DNA from: a virus
Taxonomy: Duplodnaviria; Heunggongvirae; Uroviricota; Caudoviricetes
Virus record (IMG/VR): IMGVR_UViG_2660238230_000002
Reading direction: 5' to 3' (one strand)
Length of the DNA stretch: 4,167 nucleotides
Shown here: in pieces, positions 1 to 1,441 of the stretch
Position numbering within the stretch: position 1 is the first letter of the stretch
How the letters are laid out: each line of letters starts with the position of its first letter
Notes under the pieces: model-generated
Databases searched by the model: none
What the model was told of the DNA's origin: nothing
Seen by the model: only the letters and a program-made list of their open reading frames with translations
Translations under genes and position numbers: made by a program

Positions 1-153
1 CCTTCGTAGCCTTCTGACGGCATTAACACTTTCGAGCGGCCAGGTAGCGTGCAGCCGCCGCCTGCCATGTAAACTTCGATTTCCGCATCGTCATTGTCGG
101 GGATGATGTCCCAGGTATCAGATACAAAAAGGGCCGCCAGCTCATAACGCCTC
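1..153 (-). CDS. Partial CDS fragment of unidentified product, open to the window start and cut by the IS5 left end
   Basis: The minus-strand frame is open across the whole 153 nt and reads [51 protein letters not shown]. Both other minus frames and two of three plus frames contain stops. I do not recognise the protein. Confidence 0.3.
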
Positions 154-154
154 C

Positions 155-170
155 GGAAGGTGCGAACAAG
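155..170. repeat. IS5 terminal inverted repeat, transposase-proximal end
   Basis: GGAAGGTGCGAACAAG matches 15 of 16 positions of the inverted partner at 1334-1349. Confidence 0.95.
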
Positions 171-222
171 TCCCTGATATGAGATCATGTTTGTCATCTG
201 GAGCCATAGAACAGGGTTCATC

Positions 223-1203
223 ATGAGTCATCAACTTACCTTCGCCGACAGTGAATTCAGCAGTAAGCGCCGTCAGACCAGAAAAGAGATTTTCTTGTCC
301 CGCATGGAGCAGATTCTGCCATGGCAAAACATGGTGGAAGTCATCGAGCCGTTTTACCCCAAGGCTGGTAATGGCCGGCGACCTTATCCGCTGGAAACCA
401 TGCTACGCATTCACTGCATGCAGCATTGGTACAACCTGAGCGATGGCGCGATGGAAGATGCTCTGTACGAAATCGCCTCCATGCGTCTGTTTGCCCGGTT
501 ATCCCTGGATAGCGCCTTGCCGGACCGCACCACCATCATGAATTTCCGCCACCTGCTGGAGCAGCATCAACTGGCCCGCCAATTGTTCAAGACCATCAGT
601 CGCTGGCTGGCCGAAGCAGGCGTCATGATGACTCAAGGCACCTTGGTCGATGCCACCATCATTGAGGCACCCAGCTCGACCAAGAACAAAGAGCAGCAAC
701 GCGATCCGGAGATGCATCAGACCAAGAAAGGCAATCAGTGGCACTTTGGCATGAAGGCCCACATTGGTGTCGATGCCAAGAGTGGCCTGACCCACAGCCT
801 AGTCACCACCGCGGCCAACGAGCATGACCTCAATCAGCTGGGTAATCTGCTGCATGGAGAGGAGCAATTTGTCTCAGCCGATGCCGGCTACCAAGGGGCG
901 CCACAGCGCGAGGAGCTGGCCGAGGTGGATGTGGACTGGCTGATCGCCGAGCGCCCCGGCAAGGTAAGAACCTTGAAACAGCATCCACGCAAGAACAAAA
1001 CGGCCATCAACATCGAATACATGAAAGCCAGCATCCGGGCCAAGGTGGAGCACCCATTTCGCATCATCAAGCGACAGTTCGGCTTCGTGAAAGCCAGATA
1101 CAAGGGGTTGCTGAAAAACGATAACCAACTGGCGATGTTATTCACGCTGGCCAACCTGTTTCGGGCGGACCAAATGATACGTCAGTGGGAGAGATCTCAC
1201 TAA
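223..1203 (+). CDS. insH: IS5 transposase InsH (DDE family), 326 aa; the 338-aa ORF from ATG 187 is the alternative longer annotation
   Basis: The translation [90 protein letters not shown]...[17 protein letters not shown] is essentially identical to E. coli InsH as I recall it. The stop is TAA at 1201-1203. Confidence 0.95.
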
Positions 1204-1333
1204 AAACTGGGGATAACGCCTTAAATGGCGAAGAAACGGTCTAAATAGGCTGATTCAAGGCATTTACGGGAGAAAAAATCGACTCAAACATGAAGAAATG
1301 AAATGACTGAGTCAGCCGAGAAGAATTTCCCCG

Positions 1334-1349
1334 CTTATTCGCACCTTCC
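1334..1349. repeat. IS5 terminal inverted repeat, distal end
   Basis: CTTATTCGCACCTTCC is the reverse complement of GGAAGGTGCGAATAAG. It is followed by CTAA (1350-1353), a typical IS5 target tetranucleotide. Confidence 0.95.
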
Positions 1350-1441
1350 CTAAACAACAGACCGAGAAAGACACTGAAGTTCAAAACACCGAAAGAGATA
1401 ATTGAAAGGGGTGTTGCATTGACAGATTGAATCTACAACAG

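Follow-up and report, generated by a model that had tools for sequence, protein, structure and literature searches.

A complete IS5 with unmatched flanks, an mmuP spacer and an IS30 tail, in a patchwork of E. coli-type segments

How does a complete IS5 come to lie between two tetramers that do not match? In the window, by which we mean the whole stretch of 4,167 nucleotides that was analysed, the element is bordered by CTCC on the left (151-154) and CTAA on the right (1350-1353), rather than by two copies of the 4-bp target (C-T/A-A-G/A) that a fresh IS5 insertion duplicates. An earlier note had described it as a complete IS5 without a matching duplication whose flanks probably come from different original sites, and both points are borne out: the left flank is the mmuP side of the IS5A insertion of K-12, and the right flank is the tail of an IS30. 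We put at roughly 70% the probability that these are the half-sites of two different documented IS5-family insertions, united on one IS5 by exchange within the element. That an IS copy lacks a matching duplication is a textbook indication of inter-copy recombination or adjacent rearrangement; the missing duplication is real but not surprising, and the phenomenon is already known. We attach little biological weight to it, as even in K-12 the mmuP-linked IS5 has no duplication, and the patchwork in which the element is embedded lowers its meaning further.

Table 1. Segments and features of the window, in order of position
Feature	Position	Strand	Identification
ttdA internal fragment (L-tartrate dehydratase alpha subunit)	1-116	-	100% identical to MG1655 3,206,865-3,206,980
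mmuP spacer + IS5 segment	117-1349		sequence match
mmuP-side flank of the mmuP-linked IS5 (K-12 IS5A type)	117-154	none	38 bp non-coding spacer upstream of mmuP, ends CTCC
IS5, complete	155-1349	+	1,195 bp; terminal inverted repeats 155-170 and 1334-1349; transposase gene 223-1203
IS30 tail, last 88 bp	1350-1437	+	100% identical to MG1655 IS30A and IS30D
AC dinucleotide after the IS30 end	1438-1439	none	matches K-12 IS30A/IS911 context
fecC	1439-1647		sequence match
sthA	1648-1878		sequence match
yjbH	1881-1987		sequence match
yphG	1988-2160		sequence match
lambda-type FII, FI and E head genes	2163-3229		97.3% to lambda-like phages
IS100 istB 3' part through the IS100 end	3230-3833		sequence match
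AT-rich DNA, 192 bp, 36% GC	3834-4025		best match 87%, intergenic DNA near F4 (K88) fimbrial genes, E. coli plasmid
ynfE, internal	4026-4167		sequence match

The element and its left flank

The element has the length of IS5 (~1,195 bp) and its 16-bp imperfect terminal inverted repeats, GGAAGGTGCGAACAAG on the left and CTTATTCGCACCTTCC on the right, which match at 15 of 16 positions. It carries one intact IS5-family DDE transposase, a frame of 326 amino acids with no internal stop that scores 363.7 bits against the NCBIfam model NF033581 for IS5 family transposases (cutoff, 140 bits). Its assignment to IS5 (IS5 family, IS5 group) is not in doubt despite the unmatched flanks, because a duplication characterizes a fresh insertion rather than the element as such, and K-12 IS5A does not have one either. 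The element is complete and probably functional.

Annotated IS5 copies are 99.6-99.9% identical to it. The mmuP-linked copy of Ecol_AZ147 differs by a single base (position 1282; 99.9% identity) and by no amino acid in the transposase, whereas K-12 IS5A differs at 4 of 1,195 bases; the element is thus closer to the Ecol_AZ147 and F-type plasmid variant (InsH N126S) than to K-12 IS5A. The A at 1282 lies outside the gene and is private to the window, all eight compared copies having G. The G at 599, which underlies N126S, is common to the window, Ecol_AZ147 and the copy on plasmid p3347558_2; K-12 IS5A and two other compared IS5 copies have A there.

At the left junction, ACGCCTCC is followed by GGAAGG; this is the old boundary upstream of mmuP, also present in K-12 IS5A (insH1), which sits at the right end of the cryptic prophage CP4-6 adjoining mmuP. 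The same 38-bp spacer is contiguous with IS5 in MG1655, Ecol_AZ147, plasmid p3347558_2 and GDSC2BY4G. A query of the 38-bp flank plus 46 bp of IS5, counted at 80% coverage or more, found the junction in 687 records, chromosomes as well as plasmids, representing 681 of 5,426 complete E. coli genomes. CTCC precedes IS5 in each of the four records examined (loci L001, L002, L004 and L012), and what differs is the other side: ATAA and then the 3' end of ykfC in K-12, CTAG and then a fragment of a type I restriction (hsdR) gene in Ecol_AZ147 and p3347558_2, and CTAG followed by other DNA in GDSC2BY4G. None of these four copies of the mmuP-linked IS5 has a matching duplication. On this comparison of junctions, CTCC is not a decayed duplication made here, since the junction is common to 681 genomes and never matches the right flank in the four records. 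K-12 IS5A therefore resembles the window's copy in its left junction, in the element itself and in having no matching duplication (CTCC on one side, ATAA on the other); it differs in its right flank, which is the end of ykfC where the window has the IS30 tail.

The mmuP-linked IS5 looks like a copy anchored at one end and repeatedly rearranging at the other. With one junction fixed, on many plasmids too, and the other flank variable, it offers a convenient marker of repeated IS5-driven rearrangement. In most examined lineages its right flank starts with a canonical CTAG or CTAA target. We searched metagenome contigs for an empty site upstream of mmuP, with CTCC running into DNA other than IS5, and found none.

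A further parallel is the delta(gpt-proA)62 allele of HB101 and RR1, an IS-mediated deletion written pepD-delta(gpt-ykfC)-IS5-mmuP (PMC5379014). It is anchored on the same mmuP-linked IS5, with the mmuP junction kept and the other flank replaced (PMC5379014). There, a deletion joined IS5 to pepD-side DNA, whereas in the window the IS30 tail is oriented such that only an inversion, or exchange with a copy in the opposite orientation, would account for it.

To the left of the spacer lies the ttdA fragment. The two meet in a blunt join at 116/117, and the parental sequences part company on either side of this point, with no overlap. No genome was found in which the ttdA fragment runs on into 117-154, and none of the 5,426 complete E. 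coli genomes gave a record covering at least 80% of 1-154. The ttdA fragment is unrelated to the IS5 unit. The description of the left flank in the earlier note as a disrupted minus-strand coding frame accordingly fits ttdA (1-116) and fails for 117-154, the non-coding spacer that actually adjoins the element. Strain PI24 has an IS5 in ttdA (L003 1501-3096) with a TTAG duplication, 285 bp from the fragment seen here and in the same orientation, a resemblance that is probably coincidence.

The right flank and the missing combination

The right flank carries the 3' end of the IS30 transposase gene (its last 26 codons with the stop), together with the right terminal repeat of IS30. It had been taken for AT-rich non-coding DNA; AT-rich it is (38.6% GC), but it holds coding sequence. 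The junction reads CCTTCC and then CTAAACAACAG, with the CTAA target lying within codon 357 of the IS30 transposase gene. CTAA is a canonical form of the IS5 target consensus, C-A/T-A-G/A (PMC11677980).

IS5-family elements occupy the same CTAA of IS30 in about 15 genomes (at most 16). In GDSC2BY4G and PCN061, an IS5-family element sits at the exact CTAA with a perfect CTAA duplication on both sides; each is a simple insertion. From the end of the element through the terminus of IS30, the right junction of these ISKpn26-type insertions, CTAAACAACAGACC after the IS end, is identical to that of the window to the base. They differ from the window in the element, which is 94.5% (GDSC2BY4G) or 90.9% (PCN061) identical to IS5, in having CTAA on both sides, and in the left flank, which is the N-terminal part of IS30 and not the mmuP spacer. 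The CTAA is thus occupied by two distinct IS5-family variants (L012 2876-4070 and L013 2835-4030), which points either to a hot spot that received insertions independently or to a resident copy that was converted later.

Beyond the IS30 end, the AC dinucleotide agrees with a K-12 context, and by this sequence match position 1439 is the probable end of a natural IS5-containing unit (117-1439). The evidence of the AC is weak, because a dinucleotide matches by chance 1 time in 16 and its C can also be assigned to fecC. We also considered a switch point at 1359, to which a match with Ecol_AZ147 extends. The extension is a chance similarity between CTAGAACAACA and CTAAACAACA that requires a 1-nt gap, and the switch point was rejected because the IS30 match is perfect from 1350.

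The two flanks were never found together. No record among the 5,426 complete E. coli genomes contains 117-1439 in one piece, the best records missing either the left or the right flank, and none covers at least 80% of 1350-1660. Several genomes that list IS5 and IS30 in one place (H16-H22 and H146-H149) proved to contain them as two separate pieces in another order or spacing. Flanks contiguous in a genome in which the element is absent would have been the mark of simple insertion, and no complete genome joins the left flank to the right one, in agreement with the different origins that the earlier note had proposed.

Routes to the unmatched flanks

Both half-junctions are natural, and the reading that we prefer is that an exchange across the shared 1.2-kb IS5 sequence would have brought the two half-sites onto one IS5. 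GDSC2BY4G carries both copies, inverted relative to each other at a distance of about 2 kb. In an arrangement of this kind, homologous recombination between the inverted copies would invert the DNA between them, and the product, read from the mmuP side, would run from the mmuP spacer and CTCC through IS5 to CTAA and the IS30 tail. This predicted inversion product of GDSC2BY4G matches both junctions of the window. GDSC2BY4G is a model and not the source, because GCGG follows its IS30 tail where the window has AC. In addition, the IS30-embedded copy of GDSC2BY4G has ~70 ISKpn26-type differences, none of which occurs in the IS5 of the window; a crossover with such a copy would therefore have been confined to 1167-1349, or else the partner would have been a true IS5. 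A counterpoint to the exchange is that the recombinant is absent from all complete E. coli genomes.

A single copy could have sufficed if the mmuP-linked IS5 had itself attacked the CTAA of a nearby IS30 in one step of intramolecular transposition, producing an inversion that kept the old left junction and made a new right one. Such an event would fit the IS5 body, which matches the mmuP-linked lineage from end to end and has not a single ISKpn26-type base, and in K-12 the distance would be short, with IS30A only about 2.2 kb from IS5A. It also fits the canonical nature of CTAA as an IS5 target (PMC11677980) and the adjacent deletion in HB101 anchored on the same mmuP-linked IS5 (PMC5379014). 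We nevertheless consider it unlikely: about 15 genomes already have an IS5-family element at this very CTAA, so that exchange with a resident copy is simpler, and the one-step arrangement is found in no complete genome. Its product would be identical in sequence to that of copy-to-copy recombination, and the window cannot separate the two. IS5 is, moreover, generally regarded as a cut-and-paste element, which counts against a one-step intramolecular event.

Artificial joining was already among the options of the earlier note, and, with at least eight further places in the window where unrelated fragments meet bluntly, it is natural to ask whether separate IS5 and IS30 fragments were simply pasted together at 1349/1350. 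The position of the join speaks strongly to the contrary. It falls on the last base of IS5 and on the exact natural CTAA of IS30, a double coincidence that we estimate at about one in a million for random breakpoints, whereas the other joins of the window fall inside genes without such logic. Because the sequence around 1349/1350 is identical, base for base, to a junction known from natural genomes, a chance cut-and-paste event at this point is very unlikely. Still less can be said for a simple IS5 insertion in which the left copy of a CTAA duplication became CTCC by mutation. CT is common to the two tetramers; the flanks themselves, however, belong to unrelated loci, the DNA upstream of mmuP and the end of IS30, which are never contiguous in 5,426 genomes, and CTCC next to IS5 is paired elsewhere with three other right flanks. 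By sequence, the identities of the flanks already refute this idea, and we regard its probability as negligible.

We thus infer an exchange within IS5, and the unit of 1,323 bp (117-1439) that carries its product could equally be an authentic stretch of some rare recombinant strain or a chimera formed across the IS5 repeat during assembly or construction. A cellular and an assembly origin of the exchange cannot be told apart, because the unit is embedded in a blunt-joined patchwork whose joins mostly lie away from the IS ends. For the same reason, artificial joining in the wider sense is a live option, and the patchwork prevents a choice among the mechanisms that the earlier note had listed.

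A patchwork window

Alignment segment by segment shows the entire window to be a mosaic in which at least 11 unrelated E. coli-type segments follow one another (Table 1). On the K-12 map the chromosomal pieces are scattered over positions from 0.27 to 4.5 Mb, and IS DNA makes up about 45% of the length. Apart from those at the ends of IS5, IS30 and IS100, the joins cut into genes; they number at least eight and are blunt, leaving 0-2 bases unassigned. No genome accounts for more than 54% of the window, which is not a natural contiguous locus. We therefore caution against taking disrupted genes, fusion frames or flank mismatches that arise from its adjacencies as genomic events.

We saw no restriction site or microhomology common to the joins, an absence that speaks against a concatemer made by restriction and ligation as well as against joining through shared k-mers in a de Bruijn graph. 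Exact scans found no match to the joins of ttdA with the mmuP flank and of IS30 with fecC in genome contigs, to the join of fecC with sthA in metagenome contigs, or to the join of phage DNA with IS100 in viral contigs; exact look-ups of two chimeric ORFs of the window returned no match on record. We know of no E. coli process that builds such a patchwork locus, and the window is most likely a chimeric or constructed sequence. There is a very slim chance that the whole is real cellular DNA, in which end-joined pieces of 100-1,300 bp from chromosome, prophage, plasmid and IS elements would have captured the IS5/IS30 unit among them. If that were true, it would point to an undescribed E. coli process that captures fragments or repairs DNA by scrambling.

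Several features of individual segments deserve mention. The fecC-sthA join (1647/1648) keeps both genes in one frame (ORF 1427-1972), and the yphG fragment ends in TGGT with two unassigned bases, AA (2158-2162), which create a TAA stop at the join; these may have arisen by chance or reflect the way in which the sequence was produced. The sthA fragment departs from K-12 by three transversions within 21 nt (1728, 1737 and 1748) that change V to G, H to P and Y to D. Three protein-changing transversions are unusual for natural variation in a conserved core gene. The phage fragment was considered as a possible case of sequence noise, an idea that we set aside because its differences from the nearest prophage compared fall mostly at third codon positions, like natural divergence. 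The AT-rich DNA directly after the right end of IS100 (3834-4025) probably comes from a plasmid not yet sampled, in which it would have bordered an IS100 insertion. Within IS100 itself, the IstB fragment differs from the reference IstB WP_001317493.1 by an L-to-Q change at position 3589, in the segment AMILTSNLPFG.
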